Source: a virus. From it: a DNA stretch of 64,000 nucleotides. Below the pieces are notes generated by a model. That model ran no database searches. It was not told where the DNA came from and saw only the letters and a program-made list of their open reading frames with translations. The stretch covers positions 64,001 to 128,000 of the IMG/VR virus record IMGVR_UViG_3300032238_000599; one strand, written 5' to 3'. The position numbers were made by a program, and so were the translations under genes. Below are positions 52,518 to 64,000 of the stretch, piece by piece; within the stretch, counting starts at the first letter, position 1; every line of letters begins with the position of its first letter.

Positions 52518-53501
52518 ATGGCATCATTAGCTGAAATTCGCGCAAAATTAAAGGAACAAGAAGGTAATCGTTCAAACAACGATGGTAACAGAACAGGTGG
52601 AGATAATTCCATTTATCCGTTCTGGAACTTAAAGGAAGGTTCCGAATCAACAGTCCGTTTTCTTCCTGACGGAAATACCGATAATACATTTTTCTGGGTA
52701 GAACGTGCAATGATCAAATTGCCTTTTGCTGGGGTCAAAGGCGAAAGTGAAAGCAAGCAGGTTATTGTTAATGTTCCTTGTATGGAAATGTACGGTGATA
52801 CTTGCCCAATCCTTTCAGAGGTTCGTGGCTGGTTTAAAGATCCAAGTCTTGAAGACATGGGTCGTAAATACTGGAAGAAACGTTCTTATATCGCTCAAGG
52901 ATTTGTTGTCGAAGACGGCCTTGCAGAAAAAGAAACACCAGAAAACCCAATTCGTCGATTCATCATCGGCCCTCAAATTTATCAACTTATCCGTGCAGGT
53001 TTGTTAGATCCAGAAATGGATGAAAGCCCGACACACTATGCCAAGGGTACTGATTTTAAATTAATCAAAACTTCAAAAGGTGGCTATGCTGATTATTCTA
53101 CATCAAAGTGGAGCCGTCGTACTCGTCCATTAGACGATGCTGAATCAGCCGCAATTGAAAAGAATGGGTTGTTTAATCTAAAAGATTACTTGCCTAAGAA
53201 ACCAGGCGAAATTGAACTCAAAGTTATCAAAGAAATGTTTGAAGCATCAGTAGATGGTGAAGCATTTGACATGGAACGTTGGGGACAATACTTCCGCCCA
53301 GCAGGTATGAGTGCCGCAACTGGCGATCCTAATTCTGTTAAAGCCGCTCCAAAAGCCGCTCCAGCAGATGATGAGTTTGATGACGAACCTCCAGCAGTAA
53401 AATCTGCTCCTGCTCCTAAAGCAGAACCAGCCGCAAAGGCTGAAGGTGGCGACAGTCGTGCCCAAGACATCTTGGCAATGATTCGTAACCGTCAAAAGTA
53501 A
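52518..53501 (+). CDS. gp32: Single-stranded DNA-binding protein (T4 gp32 family)
   Basis: VRFLPDG, CMEMYGDTCPI, YWKKRSY, DFKLIKT.KGGYADYSTSKW, acidic tail; AGGAGG SD. Confidence 0.9.
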   Translation: MASLAEIRAKLKEQEGNRSNNDGNRTGGDNSIYPFWNLKEGSESTVRFLPDGNTDNTFFWVERAMIKLPFAGVKGESESKQVIVNVPCMEMYGDTCPILSEVRGWFKDPSLEDMGRKYWKKRSYIAQGFVVEDGLAEKETPENPIRRFIIGPQIYQLIRAGLLDPEMDESPTHYAKGTDFKLIKTSKGGYADYSTSKWSRRTRPLDDAESAAIEKNGLFNLKDYLPKKPGEIELKVIKEMFEASVDGEAFDMERWGQYFRPAGMSAATGDPNSVKAAPKAAPADDEFDDEPPAVKSAPAPKAEPAAKAEGGDSRAQDILAMIRNRQK

Positions 53502-53549: not shown

Positions 53550-54620
53550 ATGGCTACAAAAGCCTTCGATTTATCAAAATTTCGCAAGACGTTGACTAAG
53601 AGCATCGACGGTCTTAGCGTTGGATTCCAGGACCCAACTGATTGGGTTAGTACTGGAAATTATGCTCTAAATTATCTTATCAGCGGTGATTTCAATCGAG
53701 GAATTCCGCTAGGTAAGGTTACTGTATTCGCCGGTGAATCTGGTGCAGGCAAAAGTTACATTTGTTCAGGTAATCTTGTTCGCAATGCACAAGAACAAGG
53801 AATTTATGTTGTTCTAGTTGACAGCGAAAATGCTCTTGATGAAAAATGGCTACATGCTCTTAACGTAGATACCAGCGAAGACAAACTACTTAAACTTAAT
53901 ATGGCTATGATTGATGACGTTGCTAAAACTATCAACGAATTCATGAAAGAGTACAAAGTTATGCCAGAAGATTCTCGTCCTAAGGTCTTATTTGTCATAG
54001 ACTCATTGGGTATGTTGCTTACCCCTACCGATGTCAACCAGTTTGAAGCGGGAGACCTTAAAGGCGATATGGGCCGTAAACCTAAAGCATTAACAGCACT
54101 AGTTCGTAACTGTGTTAACATGTTTGGCGCGGCAAATGTTGGACTAGTTGCTACTAATCACACATACGCAAGCCAAGATATGTTTGACCCAGATGACAAA
54201 ATTAGTGGTGGTCAAGGTTTTATCTATGCATCAAGTATTGTTGTTGCTATGAAAAAGCTCAAACTTAAAGAAGACGAAGATGGTAACAAGATTTCAGAAG
54301 TAAAAGGTATTCGTGCCGCATGTAAGATCATGAAGACACGCTATGCTAAACCTTTTGAGTCAGTACAAGTTAAGATTCCTTATGAAACAGGTATGAACCC
54401 TTACAGCGGGCTAGTTGATTTGTTTGAAGCCAAAGGTTTCTTACAAAAAGATGGCAACAGACTTAAATACGCTGGGTCAGATGAGGTAAAACTTTACCGT
54501 AAAGAATGGGAAAGAAATGAGAACGGCTGTCTTGATAAAGTGATGATTGACTTTGCCGAGAATCCTATTGTACAATCTAACATCGACCTTGAAACTGGGG
54601 AAATTTTAGAACATGAATGA
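53550..54620 (+). CDS. uvsX: RecA-like recombinase UvsX
   Basis: STGNYALNYLISG, Walker A GESGAGKS, DSENAL, VIDSLG, NHTY, SGGQG. Confidence 0.92.
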   Translation: MATKAFDLSKFRKTLTKSIDGLSVGFQDPTDWVSTGNYALNYLISGDFNRGIPLGKVTVFAGESGAGKSYICSGNLVRNAQEQGIYVVLVDSENALDEKWLHALNVDTSEDKLLKLNMAMIDDVAKTINEFMKEYKVMPEDSRPKVLFVIDSLGMLLTPTDVNQFEAGDLKGDMGRKPKALTALVRNCVNMFGAANVGLVATNHTYASQDMFDPDDKISGGQGFIYASSIVVAMKKLKLKEDEDGNKISEVKGIRAACKIMKTRYAKPFESVQVKIPYETGMNPYSGLVDLFEAKGFLQKDGNRLKYAGSDEVKLYRKEWERNENGCLDKVMIDFAENPIVQSNIDLETGEILEHE

Positions 54621-54866: not shown

Positions 54867-55319
54867 ATGTGGTACTCAAAGATTAGTAAGGACATTTCCT
54901 ACATTCCAGATGCTGTGGAATATTTCAATGCCGAATTAGAGGACGCAAGAAGTGATGCTCGTATAACGGGAAATATAGAAAAGGCCGCGGCCAGTATGCC
55001 AGGTATTGTGGAACAACGGTTTAGTCAACTTCAAGAGATTGAAGCTATTCTTGAGTACCTCAACATTGAACTAAGACGACTACGTAGTCAACATTTTCGA
55101 AAATATTTAGAAAATTATCAACGGGCTTTGTCTTCTAGAGACTGTGAAAAGTTTGTGGAAGGCGAAGCTGACGTTGTTGACTTTGAAAAAATTATTAATG
55201 AGTTTGCCTTGCTAAGAAATCGATGGCTAGGTATTACTAAAGCACTTGATGTTAAGCAATGGCAGTTATCCAATGTGATTAAACTAAGAACTGCTGGCAT
55301 GGAAGACGCTACTTTATGA
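54867..55319 (+). CDS. uvsY: Recombination mediator UvsY
   Basis: Helical 150 aa; KYLENY.RALSSRD.EK(F/Y)VEGE, KALDVKQWQLSNVIKLRTAG; follows uvsX. Confidence 0.75.
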   Translation: MWYSKISKDISYIPDAVEYFNAELEDARSDARITGNIEKAAASMPGIVEQRFSQLQEIEAILEYLNIELRRLRSQHFRKYLENYQRALSSRDCEKFVEGEADVVDFEKIINEFALLRNRWLGITKALDVKQWQLSNVIKLRTAGMEDATL

Positions 55320-56137
55320 AGCAAAAACCAACTTTATTTTTTAATGGTTGTAGTTTTGTTCACGGTGATAGTTTACTAACAGATTTTCCAGGAGAGCTTA
55401 ATCTTTCCGATCGTGTTAGCAAACTAACTGACCATAAAACTGTAAATCTTGCAATTTATGGTGCTACTAACGACCTAATTACTTTTACAACCATTGAATA
55501 TTTTAACAACCTTTCTCCAGAAGAGAGAAAAAATCATGTGGCATGCATTGGATGGACCGAGTGTTCACGTACAATGATTCCACATCCGTATCTTGACATC
55601 CCTGACAGGGATTATATCAACCCTGACAACATTTACAACTTGCAAAAACTGTGGATGCACCTAAATCTCATTGTTTTGAAACATGCAGACGAAGATGTGC
55701 GTGAAAGGTTCCGCCCGTTAGTGAAAGAAATGCTTATACACATGGGCGAGCCCTATTGGTTTAAAGAGCATGTCAAAAATATTATCTTACTTGAAAATTA
55801 TTTCAAGGCAAATGGCATTCCATATATGTTTTGGAACAGCATTGGCTTACCTATTAACAGACTAGACAAGCAAACTAGGGCAACTTTCGAAAAATACGTC
55901 GATTGGACAAAATGGATCAACTGGGCTGAACTAGATTTAGGAGTAAACCTTGCTCCGCCACCGAACGCCACACATCAATACAATCAAAAATACGGTGTGC
56001 TCGGTATGATGATGAATGATAGCGTAAAATATGAGGATGTGTGGACTAGTACAGGACATCCTGGACCTATCACTTGTCAAAAATGGGCTGAAGTTTTAGT
56101 ACAACATTTAAAAATCAAAAATCTCATAGAAATTTGA
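55316..56137 (+). CDS. SGNH/GDSL-hydrolase-like protein
   Basis: FNGCSFVHGD (block I), NLAIYGATN, IGWT, C-terminal GHPGP. Confidence 0.6.
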   Translation: MKQKPTLFFNGCSFVHGDSLLTDFPGELNLSDRVSKLTDHKTVNLAIYGATNDLITFTTIEYFNNLSPEERKNHVACIGWTECSRTMIPHPYLDIPDRDYINPDNIYNLQKLWMHLNLIVLKHADEDVRERFRPLVKEMLIHMGEPYWFKEHVKNIILLENYFKANGIPYMFWNSIGLPINRLDKQTRATFEKYVDWTKWINWAELDLGVNLAPPPNATHQYNQKYGVLGMMMNDSVKYEDVWTSTGHPGPITCQKWAEVLVQHLKIKNLIEI

Positions 56138-56168: not shown

Positions 56169-57362
56169 ATGACCACTATTGATAAAATACTAAAAGAAAT
56201 TTCCGCTATTGGATTTGATAAGTTGCAACCTAGCTTGCCTAAGCGAGATGTGAAAATTCTTAAAAATTTGGTGGTTTTAATCACTAGGCCTGAATACATT
56301 TCAGAAAATCAAGGAAAATTATTAATAAAAATTTTCAATGAAAACATTAGCTCCCTTAGTTTTCTAAATTTAGACTTAGCTGAAATTTTAAAATCGCCAT
56401 CGTGGTCGAGGCCCTTTCGAAAAATTATACAAACTCGAAAAATTGGAATTTTTCAGGCAGACACCGGTGAAAAATCAATTCAACTTGAATTCACGTTCAC
56501 TAGTACGTTAAAGAAAATTTTACAAAACCTCACAAAATCTATTCAAGACGGAACTTCTAGTGTTACTATTGTTAGCGGAAGAATTTATCGAATTCCACTC
56601 ACAGAAAAAAATCTAGTGCTAGTAGTAGATGCATTTAAAAACCATAATTTTGAGGTTTCCACGGAAATTTTAAGTTTTTACGAAACCATAAAATCTTGGG
56701 ATGGTAAAGAATTTAAGAAAAATTTTGAAATTTTTTCTGAAAGCAATTCATCTCTAAGAGAAACTATTAAAAAAATGTTAAATCTTGAAACTGAGCCATC
56801 GGAGTTGATTCTTAGTGATCGAAAAATTCAGTTTCAGTACCAATTTTTACCAAAAAAAACTGAAGATACATTAACGTCGATTATAGCAAATAGAACTTCC
56901 AGCAAAGTTTATGTTAACAGTACAACATATTCAATGATAGACTTGGTAGCATCATTAAAAGAGCTACATCGGTTGCCATTGCTAGTTGTTTTTAATGGTT
57001 ATAGTGAAACAGAAAGCCTAAAAAATCTGGAAATTTTGAGTCAAGCATTAGAAAATTCTAAAATTGATGATCGTGTAGGAATTTATTTCCGCTTTGAAAA
57101 TACTAACAGCGGAAAAGTTTTTAATCAAACTATTGCAGAGAAAAAATATAATTCTTTCCTTGACACTGACATTAATTGCGCTGGAATTATTGGTGGAAAA
57201 ATACCAAAATTTTTCCTTTCTTCCGCATGGCGCCCACAAGCTGTTATTAGTTTTACTAATAATTTAAAACACAATAAAGCCTCTGTCTATTGCAATAGTT
57301 GTGATTTAATTGTATACTATAACGAAAAGAAACCTCTAATAATAAACAATAATGACTTGTAA
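56169..57362 (+). CDS. Hypothetical protein upstream of uvsW
   Basis: 397-aa K/I/S-rich ORF overlapping the uvsW start; no motif recognised. Confidence 0.6.
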   Translation: MTTIDKILKEISAIGFDKLQPSLPKRDVKILKNLVVLITRPEYISENQGKLLIKIFNENISSLSFLNLDLAEILKSPSWSRPFRKIIQTRKIGIFQADTGEKSIQLEFTFTSTLKKILQNLTKSIQDGTSSVTIVSGRIYRIPLTEKNLVLVVDAFKNHNFEVSTEILSFYETIKSWDGKEFKKNFEIFSESNSSLRETIKKMLNLETEPSELILSDRKIQFQYQFLPKKTEDTLTSIIANRTSSKVYVNSTTYSMIDLVASLKELHRLPLLVVFNGYSETESLKNLEILSQALENSKIDDRVGIYFRFENTNSGKVFNQTIAEKKYNSFLDTDINCAGIIGGKIPKFFLSSAWRPQAVISFTNNLKHNKASVYCNSCDLIVYYNEKKPLIINNNDL

Positions 57363-58806
57363 ATTAATCATTCGAGATGAAGTTAATATTAAGCTAGAAG
57401 GCCTAGAAGTTGAGGTAAGACGTAAACTTGTAAATGCCTTCAAGTATGAAATACCTTACGCTCGTTATCAGCCTGCATATAAATTAGGTAGATGGGATGG
57501 CACAGTTAGTTTATTTGGATTAGGCGGTAACGGTTATCTATATCAACTAGAAAAAGTTCTTGAAATTTTAACAAATCAAGGCGTTGAAATCGACGAAATA
57601 GAAGATCTAAGAAATTCTGTTAAATTAAATTTTACTGAAATCGCACAAGATTTTTGGGGCGACATGTGTTGGCCAACTGGACATAGATTTGCTGGGGAAC
57701 CTATACGTCTTAGAGATGATCAAGTTGACGTTGTTAATAATTTTTTAAAAAATCCACAAAGTTTACAAGAGGTAGCAACAGGTGCAGGTAAGACCATTAT
57801 GACTGCAACCATGGCTAAAATATGTGAGCCATATGGCCGAACTATCGTCATAGTACCTAATAAAGATCTTGTTACCCAGACAGAAGAAGATTTTCGAAAT
57901 GTCAAACTAGATGTCGGTGTTTATTTCGGTGATAGGAAAGAACTTGGCAAAACACACACTATTTGTACTTGGCAAAGTCTAAACATTTTAGATAAAAAAT
58001 CTCATGATAATGCAACACTAACACTGGCTGAATTTCTTGACGGTGTTCAAACAGTAATTGTTGACGAAGTACACATGGCTAAAGCAGATGTGTTAAAAAA
58101 ATTATTAACGCAAAACTTAGCCAATGCTCCAATTCGTTGGGGACTAACAGGAACAGTACCAAAAGAGAAATATGAACACGAACAGATATTTGCAAGTATT
58201 GGTCCAGTTGTAGGACGAGTGACAGCTAAGGAATTACAAGATAAAGGCGTATTATCTAATTGTCATGTTAACATTGTACAAATGGTTGACATTAGGGAAT
58301 TTAGAAGTTATACTGATGAAGTTAAGTATCTTGTAACAGATGACGATAGAATGATTTACATCAGTAAGTTAATTAAATCTATTTCAGAATCTGGAAATAC
58401 ATTGGTACTTGTAAATCGTATAGACTCAGGTAGGTTCCTAGTCAACGAGATAGAAGATAGTGCTTTTATTTCCGGTGAGGTTAAAGGCTCTACTCGAAAA
58501 GAGGAATACAAGGGACATGCAACTGCTGATAACAAGATTACTGTGGCGACTTATGGTGTGGCCGCTGTGGGTATTAATATCCCTCGTATTTTTAATCTGG
58601 TTCTTTTGGAATCCGGAAAGAGCTTTACACGAGTTATACAAAGCATTGGGCGAGGTATTAGAAAAGCTGAAGACAAAGACTTCGTACAAATCTGGGATTT
58701 AACGTCAACTTGCAAATATGCAAAACGACATCTCACAGAAAGGAAGAAATTTTATAAAGACGCCAAATATCCATTTACAATAGAAAAGGTAGACTGGCAA
58801 AAATAA
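57352..58806 (+). CDS. uvsW: SF2 DNA helicase UvsW
   Basis: GRWDG, ATGAGKT, VDEVH, GLTGT, GINIP, QSIGRGIR. Confidence 0.9.
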   Translation: MTCKLIIRDEVNIKLEGLEVEVRRKLVNAFKYEIPYARYQPAYKLGRWDGTVSLFGLGGNGYLYQLEKVLEILTNQGVEIDEIEDLRNSVKLNFTEIAQDFWGDMCWPTGHRFAGEPIRLRDDQVDVVNNFLKNPQSLQEVATGAGKTIMTATMAKICEPYGRTIVIVPNKDLVTQTEEDFRNVKLDVGVYFGDRKELGKTHTICTWQSLNILDKKSHDNATLTLAEFLDGVQTVIVDEVHMAKADVLKKLLTQNLANAPIRWGLTGTVPKEKYEHEQIFASIGPVVGRVTAKELQDKGVLSNCHVNIVQMVDIREFRSYTDEVKYLVTDDDRMIYISKLIKSISESGNTLVLVNRIDSGRFLVNEIEDSAFISGEVKGSTRKEEYKGHATADNKITVATYGVAAVGINIPRIFNLVLLESGKSFTRVIQSIGRGIRKAEDKDFVQIWDLTSTCKYAKRHLTERKKFYKDAKYPFTIEKVDWQK

Positions 58807-58810
58807 CAAC

Positions 58811-59317
58811 ATGCAAATATTAACATTAGAAAATAAAACATTTCAACTAAACAATTTACCCGATGAGGTAGATGAAAACACTAGGTTTGCTGTATTAGAC
58901 AACAGCGCACCTGCAGAACCAGACTTCTTTTTTGTACCATTAATATTTTTAGAAAGTTTTAATGCGCCAGCAATGGTATTAAGAATCGGTGAAAACGAAG
59001 TAACAATGCCCATAGATTGGAGCATTGCAGTTGGCGATAGTTCTAGTTCGTGCGATATTGAAATACTTCCGCTTACAAGTCTTAATGATAGGGGATTTGA
59101 AGCATTAGTTTTTAATCCCCTAAGTTCATTTAGGGTAGAATTTAAAAAAATTGAAATTATAAATTTTTACAATGATGTTAAATGGTATTTCCCTAAGATG
59201 CGTAACGGGCAATTATTAGCAGTTCCAACTCAGCAAGGACACAAACCAGAGTGTTCATACTTTGTTAAAGAGATTAGTAGACAAAGTGAAATTATTCAAT
59301 TAGACAAATTATTATGA
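58811..59317 (+). CDS. Hypothetical beta-rich protein
   Basis: 168-aa ORF coupled to neighbours. Confidence 0.6.
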   Translation: MQILTLENKTFQLNNLPDEVDENTRFAVLDNSAPAEPDFFFVPLIFLESFNAPAMVLRIGENEVTMPIDWSIAVGDSSSSCDIEILPLTSLNDRGFEALVFNPLSSFRVEFKKIEIINFYNDVKWYFPKMRNGQLLAVPTQQGHKPECSYFVKEISRQSEIIQLDKLL

Positions 59318-59961
59318 CATTAAAAGTTGCATATTTCCAACCAGTAGTACTAGCAATAGACCAAGTTCCGCCAGTTGAATTTAGCCGTATGTACAGCCTA
59401 GTAGAAAGTCTACACAACCGTCCTGAACTTAATGATGCTGACAATCCTTTTATCAGTATCCGTGGCGGACAACAGATACAAGTATATCCTAATGAATATA
59501 ACTTAGATGTTAAATGGTTAGTTGATTGGGTTGAGTTAATGGCGCAAGGTTATATGGAATTAATCATTGCTCAAAGCGGAACTGAGGACTTAAAATACTG
59601 CAAACCTGTCTGTGTTAGTATTTGGACTATTCGTCAACAAGAAGGCGACTACCAGGAAATGCATAGTCACCCAACAGGCAATTTAAGTGGTAACATCTAT
59701 ATCACTGCTCCAGAACTTGATGATGATTTAAAACAACCAAGTGACAGTCAAATTCTTTTTAGACTTCCACATACACGAGATGTTGGCAAGTTTATTATGA
59801 ATGACACTTGGAAATATAGTCCAGCACCCGGAACGTTTGTCCTATTCCCAAGTTATCTTCCACATACAGTTTACCCATGGAAGGGTCCTGGTTATAGAAC
59901 AGTAATGGCGTTCGATATCAAGTTAATTCCCAAGGATGAACTAGCTAATGGGAACACTTAA
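59314..59961 (+). CDS. Putative 2OG-Fe(II) oxygenase (TIGR02466-like)
   Basis: W....GDYQEMHSH...LSGNIY, FPSYLPHTVYP, RTVMAFD. Confidence 0.75.
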   Translation: MTLKVAYFQPVVLAIDQVPPVEFSRMYSLVESLHNRPELNDADNPFISIRGGQQIQVYPNEYNLDVKWLVDWVELMAQGYMELIIAQSGTEDLKYCKPVCVSIWTIRQQEGDYQEMHSHPTGNLSGNIYITAPELDDDLKQPSDSQILFRLPHTRDVGKFIMNDTWKYSPAPGTFVLFPSYLPHTVYPWKGPGYRTVMAFDIKLIPKDELANGNT

Positions 59962-60217
59962 ACCCGGTGCCACTTACATATATGAACGTTCTGGCGGAAC
60001 AGTTTATGCCAGAGAATTTGGATCCACAGAACGAAAAGTAATCGGGTATGAATGGCCAAATAAAGCAGATCCCCTCCAATATGATTTAGTCGAAACACAA
60101 CTTTGGCAAGATATTGTTCATGCAGGGAAAACCAATCCCACTTTACAAAAAGCCTTAGATCGTGCTAAAATGTTGTACAACATGAGTGAAGAATATGAGC
60201 GAAAAGATCGAACTTAA
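59948..60217 (+). CDS. Hypothetical protein
   Basis: 89 aa with AAGGA SD, overlapping both neighbours. Confidence 0.55.
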   Translation: MGTLKPGATYIYERSGGTVYAREFGSTERKVIGYEWPNKADPLQYDLVETQLWQDIVHAGKTNPTLQKALDRAKMLYNMSEEYERKDRT

Positions 60218-60671
60218 AGAAAAACTAGCCGCAGTAGACATGAACTTTCGTTCCCTATGGGATGAAATAGATGACGCCCAACGAAAAAGTTTGAAGAGCG
60301 AACTTTATATTTTAAATCGATATATCAGTAGTGCAAAAGGTCAGAACAGAGAAACACAAGAACATTTTGTGTTAACTGTCAACGAATATTTTAATAAAAA
60401 TTGGAACGACCTACAGAAACATCCTAAACTGTTATGGCTATTACTTTGTATGTGTTCTTGGGATGGTCAAAAAATTATGTTCCACGAATGGATAGGATTT
60501 AAGAAAAAGAAGGGCGACACTAAAATTCTTAAATTTTTACTTGAAATTTATCCTAATAGAAAACACGACGAACTTGAAATGTTAGCACAAACCATGACGG
60601 GTAAAGAAGCAAGAGAGCTTGCTAGAACGCATGGGTACGATGACAAACAAGTTGAAAAGATGTTTAAATAA
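60195..60671 (+). CDS. Hypothetical protein, possibly clamp-loader small subunit (gp62-like)
   Basis: YILNRYISS...VNE...HPKL.W....FHEWI..KKK weakly resembles gp62 in size and pattern; replication context. Confidence 0.4.
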   Translation: MSEKIELKEKLAAVDMNFRSLWDEIDDAQRKSLKSELYILNRYISSAKGQNRETQEHFVLTVNEYFNKNWNDLQKHPKLLWLLLCMCSWDGQKIMFHEWIGFKKKKGDTKILKFLLEIYPNRKHDELEMLAQTMTGKEARELARTHGYDDKQVEKMFK

Positions 60672-60676
60672 TAGTG

Positions 60677-61375
60677 ATGCTAAACTTGAAACCAGTAGAT
60701 CAACCTTATGTATGTTCGCATTGTAATAGCGGATTTATGAAGGAAAAAACATTAACTGTTCATATGTGCGAACAGAAGCGTAGGTATTTGGCTCGTTCAG
60801 AGAAACACGTTCAGATAGGTTATCAAGCATACATTAAATTTTATCAGCTTACACAAAGATTCCAAGGCGAAAAAACCTATGACGAATTTTCACGTAGTCC
60901 GTATTACAACGCTTTCATAAAATTTGGAAGTTTTGTTAGCAATGTTAACCCGTTGTATCCTCAACATTATATCGACTGGGTAGTAACTAGTAACGTGAAA
61001 TTAGATCACTGGTGTCGTCAAGAACTCTACGACAAGTATGTGCTTGAGTTGATTAAAACAGAAAATGTAGAGACAGCATTACAACGAACGCTAGCTCATA
61101 TGATGGATTGGGCAGAAGAAAAAAATGCAGTATGGAATCATTATTTTGATTACGTAAGCCTTAGTCGTGCTACATTTGATATTAGAGATGGTAAGATAAG
61201 TCCGTGGGTTATACTTAACTGCCAAGCAGGAAAAACAATGCTATCTAAAATGAATGACGAACAGCTAGAAGCTATAAGTGCCGTAATTGATCCAGAGTAT
61301 TGGATGAGGACATTCCGTAAGCAAAAACAAGATGTAGAACTTGTTCGACAAGTTCTTGAGGAAGCTAAATTATGA
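60677..61375 (+). CDS. Hypothetical protein with N-terminal Zn finger
   Basis: YVCSHC...F.KEKTL.VHMC (C2HC-like); GTG at 60674 is an alternative start. Confidence 0.6.
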   Translation: MLNLKPVDQPYVCSHCNSGFMKEKTLTVHMCEQKRRYLARSEKHVQIGYQAYIKFYQLTQRFQGEKTYDEFSRSPYYNAFIKFGSFVSNVNPLYPQHYIDWVVTSNVKLDHWCRQELYDKYVLELIKTENVETALQRTLAHMMDWAEEKNAVWNHYFDYVSLSRATFDIRDGKISPWVILNCQAGKTMLSKMNDEQLEAISAVIDPEYWMRTFRKQKQDVELVRQVLEEAKL

Positions 61376-61554
61376 TTACCCCAGGAAATACAGAAGCAGT
61401 ACAGTTAGGCCTAGAAGTAATTTTAAGTGAAGACGATAAAACAGTCTATGTAAAATTTACAGGTTTTGAAAACATAGAAGAAGCAGATAATTATGCTTCT
61501 TACTTAACTGATACATTACCATTATTACTTTTTGAATCTGAAATAAAACACTAA
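61372..61554 (+). CDS. Small hypothetical protein
   Basis: 60 aa, GAGG SD, ATGA and TAATG overlaps with neighbours. Confidence 0.5.
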   Translation: MITPGNTEAVQLGLEVILSEDDKTVYVKFTGFENIEEADNYASYLTDTLPLLLFESEIKH

Positions 61555-62132
61555 TGCCAGATATTGACATTGACTTTGCAGATCGATCTAAAGCTCTTGA
61601 ACATTTCAAGCATGTTACTGCGACTATAGAAGACAACGGCACTTTTAAAAAACACAATTCAGGAATATATTGTACTTCTATTCCGTACAATCCAATTACT
61701 GGTATGAGTACCATTGACTATAAGTCGGCAGAAGACCGAGGTTATTTTAAGATCGATTTTTTGAATGTTAATGTTTATAACGGTGTAAAAGACGAAGCAC
61801 ATTTAATTCAATTAATGGAGACTGAACCACTATGGGATCTATTAGAACAAGATGACTTTACAAATTTACTGTTCCACATAAATGGGCATGGCTACTTGAT
61901 GAGGCAAATGAAACCTACGAGTATAGAAGAGTTAGCAATGTGTTTGTCTTTGATACGCCCTGCGAAAAAACATCTAGTTGGGAAGACGTGGACGGAGATT
62001 GGGATGACGATTTGGGAGAAACCGGAGAACGGTGAATACTACTTTAAGAAGAGCCACGCAGTTGCGTATGCTATGGCTATTGTAGTACAAATGAATTTAA
62101 TTTGTGAACAGATAAGTTACGGATACAGTTAA
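61554..62132 (+). CDS. dnaE: Miniature DNA polymerase III alpha (DnaE, family C)-like protein
   Basis: MPDIDIDF, KHNSGIY, GYFKIDFLNV, LAMCLSLIRPA, YYFKKSHAVAYA match DnaE motifs in order within only 192 aa. Confidence 0.75.
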   Translation: MPDIDIDFADRSKALEHFKHVTATIEDNGTFKKHNSGIYCTSIPYNPITGMSTIDYKSAEDRGYFKIDFLNVNVYNGVKDEAHLIQLMETEPLWDLLEQDDFTNLLFHINGHGYLMRQMKPTSIEELAMCLSLIRPAKKHLVGKTWTEIGMTIWEKPENGEYYFKKSHAVAYAMAIVVQMNLICEQISYGYS

Positions 62133-62503
62133 CGAGTTTTTCTAACAAGCTGAACTGATTTTCTTTTAATTCTTTTTAAAGTTAGGTTCATTAAATTGAC
62201 CACTGGTCCTAACACAATTCTTACATCCTTGCTGTTAAATGTTTTAATAGCATATCTATAAGGTTCAATTTGCGTCCTTAAAAATATGTTGATAGGAACT
62301 TGTCTATTTGATTCCCACCACCAAGTTTCTCCTATTTCTAAAAATCCTGATTTTTCTTCAGGTGTTCGAATAGAATTAAGATCGTAAAAACTAGTTACGT
62401 ACTGGTCTTGGTTAATAATAATCCCAACATACTCGTTTTCGCCGTAGTTTATCACACTTATAAACGGAAGTTGCTCTTCAATATTGTCTCGTAATTTTAT
62501 CAT
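62129..62503 (-). CDS. Hypothetical protein
   Basis: 124-aa ORF filling the gap between convergent and divergent neighbours; WWWESNR motif, basic C-terminus. Confidence 0.6.
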   Translation of the reverse strand: MIKLRDNIEEQLPFISVINYGENEYVGIIINQDQYVTSFYDLNSIRTPEEKSGFLEIGETWWWESNRQVPINIFLRTQIEPYRYAIKTFNSKDVRIVLGPVVNLMNLTLKRIKRKSVQLVRKTR

Positions 62504-63419: not shown

Positions 63420-64000
63420 ATGAGTCTAATTGTAGAAACAGTTCAAAACTATCTTCCTGCTAGAAGAAAACATACCCCCAGTGGTTGGATAAGTTTTAAT
63501 GCACCGTGTTGTAGCGACAAACGCCAGCGTGGTGGTCTCATCTTTAATACCGGCGACGCAGTAAGCTACCACTGTTTTAATTGTGGCTTCAAAGCTAGTT
63601 GGCAACCTGGAAGACAAATTAGCCAAAAGATGAGTAAGCTGTTGCGATTATTCAATGTACCCGACGATACAATTAATCAACTGAGATTAGAAGCTCTAAG
63701 ATTAAATGATACATCAAGTGTTGAAATCCGTAGTATAGTTCCTAAGTTTGATGCTCGTGCATTACCAATGGATGCTAAAAGTTTAGACGAGTGGACTACT
63801 TGGATCAATTTGCAAGGTTGGGAAAATGCCGACCAAGAACTTATCAATGCTTTTTGTTATATACGAAATATTAGAGGATTAGATCCCTATGCCCATCCTT
63901 ACTACTGGACTAGCAAAGTTGGATTTAAGAATAGAATTATAATTCCGTTTTACAAAGATGGTGTGATAGTTGGCTGGACTGCTAGGGCAACTAAACCAGA
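63420..64000 (+). CDS. gp61: DNA primase (T4 gp61-like), 3'-truncated by window; absent from the ORF track
   Basis: Manual translation MSLIVETVQNYLPARRKHTPSGWISFNAPCCSDKRQRGG...SYHCFNCGFKASW (Zn-binding domain) ... NRIIIPFYKDGVIVGWTAR. Confidence 0.8.
   Translation, partial: MSLIVETVQNYLPARRKHTPSGWISFNAPCCSDKRQRGGLIFNTGDAVSYHCFNCGFKASWQPGRQISQKMSKLLRLFNVPDDTINQLRLEALRLNDTSSVEIRSIVPKFDARALPMDAKSLDEWTTWINLQGWENADQELINAFCYIRNIRGLDPYAHPYYWTSKVGFKNRIIIPFYKDGVIVGWTARATKP

Follow-up and report, generated by a model that had tools for sequence, protein, structure and literature searches.

The cyanobacterial DnaE is a family-C polymerase that is produced from two distant genes, and the two products are joined by a trans-splicing split intein. 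For the group 2.2 jumbo phages, Iyer, Anantharaman, Krishnan, Burroughs and Aravind used sequence analysis to describe a "minimal split DNA Pol III α" (Iyer et al., Viruses 2021, PMC7824862). The genome paper of Atu_ph07 already lists a Pol III α-like gene, and many homologs carry the JGI label "DNA polymerase III alpha subunit". In the literature we found no biochemical or experimental study of the split enzyme; Iyer et al. (2021) and the annotations of genome announcements were the only sources. The C-terminal half of the group 2.2 enzyme belongs to PHROG 11778, with 121Q gp16, Phosso gp437 and PA5oct EST35_0220 as members.

The stretch of DNA analysed here (called the window) covers 64,000 nucleotides, from position 64,001 to 128,000 of the IMG/VR virus record IMGVR_UViG_3300032238_000599. 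The whole record measures 144,986 bp and is approximately 39% complete. The window carries an intact gene of 192 aa with an ATG start at 61554–62132 (+ strand), which is of the same family as the group 2.2 proteins. It is almost certainly the C-terminal subunit of the split enzyme, and it is called the C-half here; its partner is called the N-half. Homologs of the C-half occur in 96 phage records, which include RaK2/121Q, PA5oct, Atu_ph07 and related phages. The identity to the isolate phages of group 2.2 is 33–55%, in alignments that cover at least 90% of the protein. Both the length of the protein and its PDxDxD start are the same as in these isolates, and so is the gene order: zinc-finger protein, C-half, small convergent gene, structural protein and primase. 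The gp32, UvsX, UvsY, UvsW and primase genes within the window make up a T4-like set. In relatives, the N-half is likewise encoded far away, and a family-B polymerase is present. Unlike the isolates, the window represents an uncultivated environmental lineage, with 66–88% identity to many metagenomic copies and at most 55% to any isolate. When the region was compared with isolate phages by megablast, nothing matched.

The ATG of the C-half overlaps by one base the stop codon (TAA) of an upstream 60-aa ORF (61372–61554, + strand), so that the junction reads TAATG. This small ORF is poorly conserved, being detected in 23 of 77 related loci, and has no family match. A TGA at 61539–61541 lies in frame, four codons before the ATG, and a longer N-terminus is thus excluded. 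The protein opens at MPDIDIDF (residues 1–8) and continues with KHNSGIY (32–38), GYFKIDFL (63–70), LSLIRP (131–136) and YYFKKSHAVAY (161–171), in the order found in DnaE. The key residues are the carboxylates D5, D7 and D68, the lysine K66, the HxxG motif at 34–37, RP at 135–136 and KxSH at 165–168. The preliminary description of this DNA had listed these five motifs, the opening included, and had stated that all three catalytic aspartates are retained; all of these are present. It had also described the PHP domain, the clamp-binding region, the OB domain and the GRGS segment as absent. We likewise found no PHP, clamp-binding or OB domain in the C-half, which stops at the equivalent of approximately E. 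coli residue 784, and Pfam gave no PHP match on it. The GRGS loop is not on this polypeptide, which begins at MPDIDIDF; in relatives, the loop is on a separate protein.

PHROG 11778, annotated as "DNA polymerase" (197 positions), matches residues 3–186 of the C-half on profile positions 8–194 with an E-value of 6e-69. The match to PHROG 405, the full-length DnaE, is weak, and the only Pfam match is a sub-threshold one to the Pol III finger domain. With phmmer against the PDB sequences, four collinear pieces of the C-half fall on M. tuberculosis DnaE1, and MPDIDIDF is identical to residues 413–420 of that enzyme. We used an alignment of 88 diverse C-half homologs (29–54% identical to the query) as the basis for both a sequence profile and an AlphaFold2 model. 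When the PDB sequences were searched with the profile, only Pol III α fell below an E-value of 0.6; nine matches were below 1e-3, ranging from 5e-6 to 1e-4. In the profile alignment, residues 53–139 of the query correspond to E. coli 538–641 and residues 151–178 to E. coli 740–768. Counted along this alignment, K66 and D68 correspond to E. coli K553 and D555, and K165 and H168 to K758 and H760. D5 and D7 correspond to D401 and D403, the aspartates of the E. coli PDFDVDF motif, and R135-P136 aligns with the E. coli ALFRPG motif. We take D401, D403, D555, K553, K758 and H760 of E. coli to be catalytic or active-site residues of Pol III α.

The AlphaFold2 model of the C-half has a mean pLDDT of 96.5 and a pTM of 0.89. 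Foldseek returned DnaE or PolC for all of the top 17 PDB matches, with a probability of 1.00 for DnaE. In VIA-align, the best 14 matches were also DnaE or PolC (Z 6.1–9.7), followed by an unrelated chain at Z 3.0. The superpositions with Z 9.1–9.7 extend over 183–188 residues and cover E. coli 400–784, Taq 461–841 and PolC 971–1296. The model thus has the palm, the three carboxylates and the lysine in common with DnaE (E. coli 2hnh, T. aquaticus 3e0d/2hpi, M. tuberculosis 5lew) and PolC (3f2b), together with the HAGG-like, RPG and KSH finger motifs in the same order. By its carboxylates, finger motifs and predicted fold, the C-half is a family-C palm and fingers core. It is a strongly reduced one. 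Unlike in E. coli α, where the equivalent region takes up approximately 385 residues (400–784), the core is compressed into 190. The preliminary description had inferred that most of the thumb and fingers are gone. A finger segment of approximately 100 residues (E. coli 641–740) is absent. The spacing between DxD and the K-x-D region is 45 residues, as against approximately 135 in E. coli α. In the domain map of Pol III α, this gap of the E. coli enzyme holds the thumb insert; the C-half must therefore have no thumb or only a vestige of one.

Across the 88 homologs, the catalytic carboxylates and K66 are conserved at 96–100%. K66, D68 and P136 are invariant, and D3, D5, D7, H34, G37, R135, K138, K165 and H168 are each conserved in at least 90%. 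The C-half family forms 431 clusters at 50% identity, and its full-length members are nearly all approximately 190–200 aa long and open at PDxDxD. The N-half family is as abundant; at 90% identity, each half forms at least 7,900 clusters. Among 80 related IMG/VR loci, 77 have an intact ORF of 188–195 aa, and 73 begin with MPDIDIDF. When these genes are compared with the window gene by the Nei–Gojobori method, the median dN/dS is 0.09 and no value exceeds 0.21, although dS is close to saturation. Low dN/dS and intact homologs indicate a functional gene and not a decayed fragment. The preliminary description had judged the TAATG-coupled gene to be intact, which the related loci and the median dN/dS bear out, and the comparison among homologs that it had proposed points to strong purifying selection. 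As evidence that would count against its own reading, it had named frameshifted homologs or unconserved aspartates; the ORF is intact in the 77 loci, and the aspartates are conserved in 96–100% of homologs.

A scan with PF07733 revealed a separate N-half gene of 157–180 aa in all seven longer relatives examined. The protein measures 169–180 aa in the isolates Phosso, 121Q and PA5oct. It is 157–168 aa long in four contigs (223–300 kb) of the window's own clade, all four of which carry it and have C-halves that are 68–75% identical to the query. The N-half matches PF07733 at positions ~12–97. Its C-terminus reads ...WGVGRGSSVASYVLYLIGVHKIDSLKYNLDWREFLR followed by the stop, which is the DnaE GRGS loop plus the next helix, halting directly before PDxDxD; the ending follows the pattern ...GVGRGSSVASY...EFLR-stop. 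The distance between the two genes is 31–224 kb overall and 163–186 kb in the four clade contigs. In the records of isolate phages, the sets of host genera and their counts agree for both halves. Two genes downstream of the N-half, 121Q and Phosso encode a small protein (L006:2163–2489 and L005:2226–2576) that looks GroES/gp31-like by eye.

The preliminary description had suggested that the gene could encode half of a minimal polymerase that is split in two, and that the genome be searched for a small GRGS-type ORF and for a gp43 polymerase. In relatives, the partner gene ends where the C-half begins, and fusions of the two exist (see below). The small GRGS-type ORF is present in the seven longer relatives examined. 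In the window's own 145-kb record, an N-half was found neither by the PF07733 scan nor by protein search, tblastn up to an E-value of 100 or a six-frame search for GRGS; the only in-frame GRGS lies inside an unrelated ORF. No family-B polymerase was found in the 145-kb record, and one is present in four of five relatives searched, namely in 121Q (frame of approximately 1010 aa) and, as a frame of approximately 890 aa, in three of the four long contigs of the clade. As the record is a fragment of ~39%, the missing N-half and the missing family-B polymerase are uninformative. Alishewanella phage Slickus01 (OQ508957.1; a 141.6-kb record) carries both halves, so the split enzyme is not restricted to genomes above 200 kb.

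The two halves also occur naturally as a single protein. Rare fusions (P0209, P0271 and P0272; three clusters, 375–376 aa) consist of the N-half, a linker of 13 residues and the C-half. One fused gene, on a contig of the Logan assembly SRR16020819 (L102:519–1649), is located at the C-half locus. Downstream of it are homologs of the window's 124-aa convergent gene (E = 8e-10) and of the structural protein (E = 5e-7). In a FastTree phylogeny of C-half sequences (midpoint-rooted, local supports 0.75–0.99), the fused clade sits ten nodes deep among split forms. By this nested position, the fusion is probably secondary. Pfam annotation of the N-halves and the fused forms gave PF07733 only. The fused form, folded with its own smaller alignment, yielded a model with a pLDDT of 87.3 and a pTM of 0.87. 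This model superposes on the ternary complex of Taq Pol III α with Z 22.0 over 294 residues (3.1 Å). Its matches comprise 15 DnaE/PolC entries and then small nucleotidyltransferases of the Pol-β fold (MenT4, Cid1) at Z ≤3.5. As the fusions fold as a single Pol III core, they are good Rosetta-stone evidence that the halves are one enzyme.

The C-half closes a run of genes on the same strand (+). The run comprises a gp32-like SSB (52518–53501), UvsX (53550–54620), a UvsY-like protein (54867–55319), two ORFs of 273 aa (55316–56137) and 397 aa (56169–57362), the UvsW helicase (57352–58806), more ORFs, a 2OG-Fe(II) oxygenase (59314–59961; PF13759, E = 4e-19) and a zinc-finger-like protein of 233 aa with an N-terminal CxxC...HxC motif (60674–61375; PHROG 11058). 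Neither Pfam nor PHROGs matched the 397-aa ORF, which directly precedes UvsW. The oxygenase is present in just 45 of 72 related loci, and it is thus an accessory insertion in the run of replication genes. A neighbour of 161 aa (60186–60671) belongs to PHROG 11758, a family of unknown function, and has no Pfam hit; the preliminary description had called it gp62-like, for which neither Pfam nor PHROGs gave support. Beyond the C-half, there are a convergent 124-aa gene (62129–62503, − strand; PHROG 11637) that overlaps the polymerase stop, a structural protein and a DNA primase (63420–64000, + strand; PHROG 47) that runs off the end of the window.

Several of these neighbours are conserved. The zinc-finger protein lies upstream of the C-half in 77 of 77 related loci (121Q homolog gp14, E = 6e-38). 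The 124-aa convergent gene is present in 77 of 78 (121Q homolog gp17, E = 4e-27) and also stands beside the fused form. The primase is found in 66 of 66 related loci, and the order is the same in 121Q, Phosso and PA5oct. A look-up of the zinc-finger protein in the ESM Atlas returned phage hypothetical proteins only. The preliminary description had suggested that the polymerase might work with its zinc-finger and gp62-like neighbours. It is possible that the zinc-finger and 124-aa proteins, which flank the C-half from the window's clade to 121Q, are accessory factors of the enzyme.

In 121Q, a DnaQ-like exonuclease of 272 aa is encoded beside UvsW. Unlike in 121Q, the window has an unrelated ORF at this place. 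The 273-aa ORF between UvsY and UvsW was considered as a DnaQ-like ε partner and was rejected, as it shows no similarity to the 121Q exonuclease. It has a weak, sub-threshold match to DUF6071 (E = 7e-5), no PHROG match above threshold and no exonuclease match in the PDB. The exonuclease family PF00929 was detected in one of five clade records. With an unrelated ORF in the exonuclease slot and PF00929 in one of five, a conserved α–ε pairing is unsupported in this clade.

Taken together, these data are probably best explained by a two-polypeptide minimal family-C polymerase with a composite active site and an auxiliary role. The C-half would provide the second half of a Pol-β-type nucleotidyltransferase palm, with the metal-binding residues D5, D7 and D68 and the lysine K66. 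It would also supply a pared-down finger module, in which R135-P136, K138, K165 and H168 may make the contacts to dNTP and template that are made in Pol III α. The N-half (~160–180 aa), encoded tens to hundreds of kb away, would contribute the first half of the palm and the GRGS loop that is predicted to hold the triphosphate. The split falls inside the minimal nucleotidyltransferase fold, after the GS loop and before the strand with DxD, so the active site must be a composite of both chains. The cyanobacterial DnaE is similar in being a family-C polymerase from two distant genes. It differs in that the phage proteins have no intein (Hint) halves and are split inside the palm, between the GS loop and DxD, so that the product would remain two chains. 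As there are no intein residues at the junction, the two chains must associate non-covalently. Unlike DnaE and PolC, the assembled enzyme would have its core on two polypeptides, with little or nothing left of the thumb insert and without the PHP domain, the clamp-binding motif, the OB fold and the τ-binding tail.

The data show the homology, the fold, the conserved residues, the split itself, the partner gene of the relatives, the natural fusion and the purifying selection; for the two-chain enzyme we infer heterodimer formation, DNA polymerase activity and a biological role. To judge from the sequences and the models, the complex of N-half and C-half is fairly likely to be a DNA polymerase. 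The retention of finger residues specific to family C favours templated DNA synthesis. Two features speak for an enzyme that is auxiliary and probably distributive: these phages have a complete family-B replicase, and the thumb, the clamp-binding motif, the OB fold and the PHP domain have been lost. With no thumb, no clamp-binding motif and no evident proofreader, a processive replicative role is unlikely. The location in a module with UvsX, UvsY, UvsW and primase makes gap filling, repair or recombination-dependent synthesis candidate roles.

The same reductions could be read differently. As the second option of the preliminary description had it, the split Pol-β-type core may be a repurposed nucleotidyltransferase, which is active but does not synthesize DNA on a template. 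Candidates would be a terminal transferase, a synthase of nucleotide signals or an enzyme with modified nucleotides or DNA as its substrate. In favour of this are the missing thumb, clamp-binding motif, OB fold and PHP domain, the lack of a conserved proofreader in this clade and the complete family-B replicase that these phages already have. After DnaE and PolC, the fused form is structurally closest to MenT4 and Cid1, albeit at Z ≤3.5. However, the family-C-specific RP and KxSH residues, which bind dNTP and template in these polymerases, are as conserved as the catalytic aspartates. The fused form superposes on DNA-bound Pol III α itself (Z 22 over 294 residues), and the gene is set between recombination genes and the primase. 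We therefore consider this explanation improbable. A related proposal is that the two-chain enzyme of approximately 360 residues is no conventional DNA polymerase and that its family-C palm has taken on a new function, such as the transfer of nucleotides without a template, or of modified ones, in recombination-dependent replication; we give it an equally low chance. Its activity might then be gated by the assembly of two subunits from distant loci. In a milder version, the enzyme could be the smallest self-sufficient family-C polymerase known, near the ancestral core.

It is very unlikely that the C-half acts without the N-half, either alone or with the zinc-finger protein, and that the N-half is independent or dispensable. 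The lack of an N-half in the 145-kb record would agree with such an arrangement, as would the strict conservation of the zinc-finger protein and the 124-aa gene as neighbours. However, the record is only ~39% complete, the longer relatives examined (7/7) do have the N-half, and the natural fusions join exactly these two proteins. Split as it is inside the minimal nucleotidyltransferase fold, the C-half alone would be without the triphosphate-binding loop.

The gene might also be a remnant in decay, or part of a full-length dnaE that an intron or intein interrupts; the preliminary description had named the latter as an outcome that would overturn its reading. The length of the C-half (192 aa against ~1160 aa for DnaE) and the cyanobacterial trans-splicing precedent might suggest this, but it is refuted for practical purposes by the selection on intact loci (median dN/dS 0.09, 77 of 80), by 431 clusters of nearly uniform length that open at PDxDxD, by a junction (...EFLR-stop and MPDIDIDF) that leaves no residues for intein halves and no room for an intron in either half, by the 31–224 kb between the halves and by the fused form, which needs just 13 residues of linker.

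The preliminary reading of the gene as part of a split minimal polymerase is correct, and sequence analysis had already brought enzymes of this kind to light. As the concept was published in 2021, the window adds another environmental member and supporting detail and is not the discovery of the enzyme. New here are the partner gene in the window's clade, the rare fusions at the C-half locus, the confident models and the quantified purifying selection. Elsewhere, the polymerases of family C are large bacterial replicases with several domains. The phage core is natural, measures approximately 360 residues, is split through its active site and is very abundant in environmental jumbo phages; it defines the minimal needs of this fold, and the split enzyme is a tractable target for biochemical and structural work.
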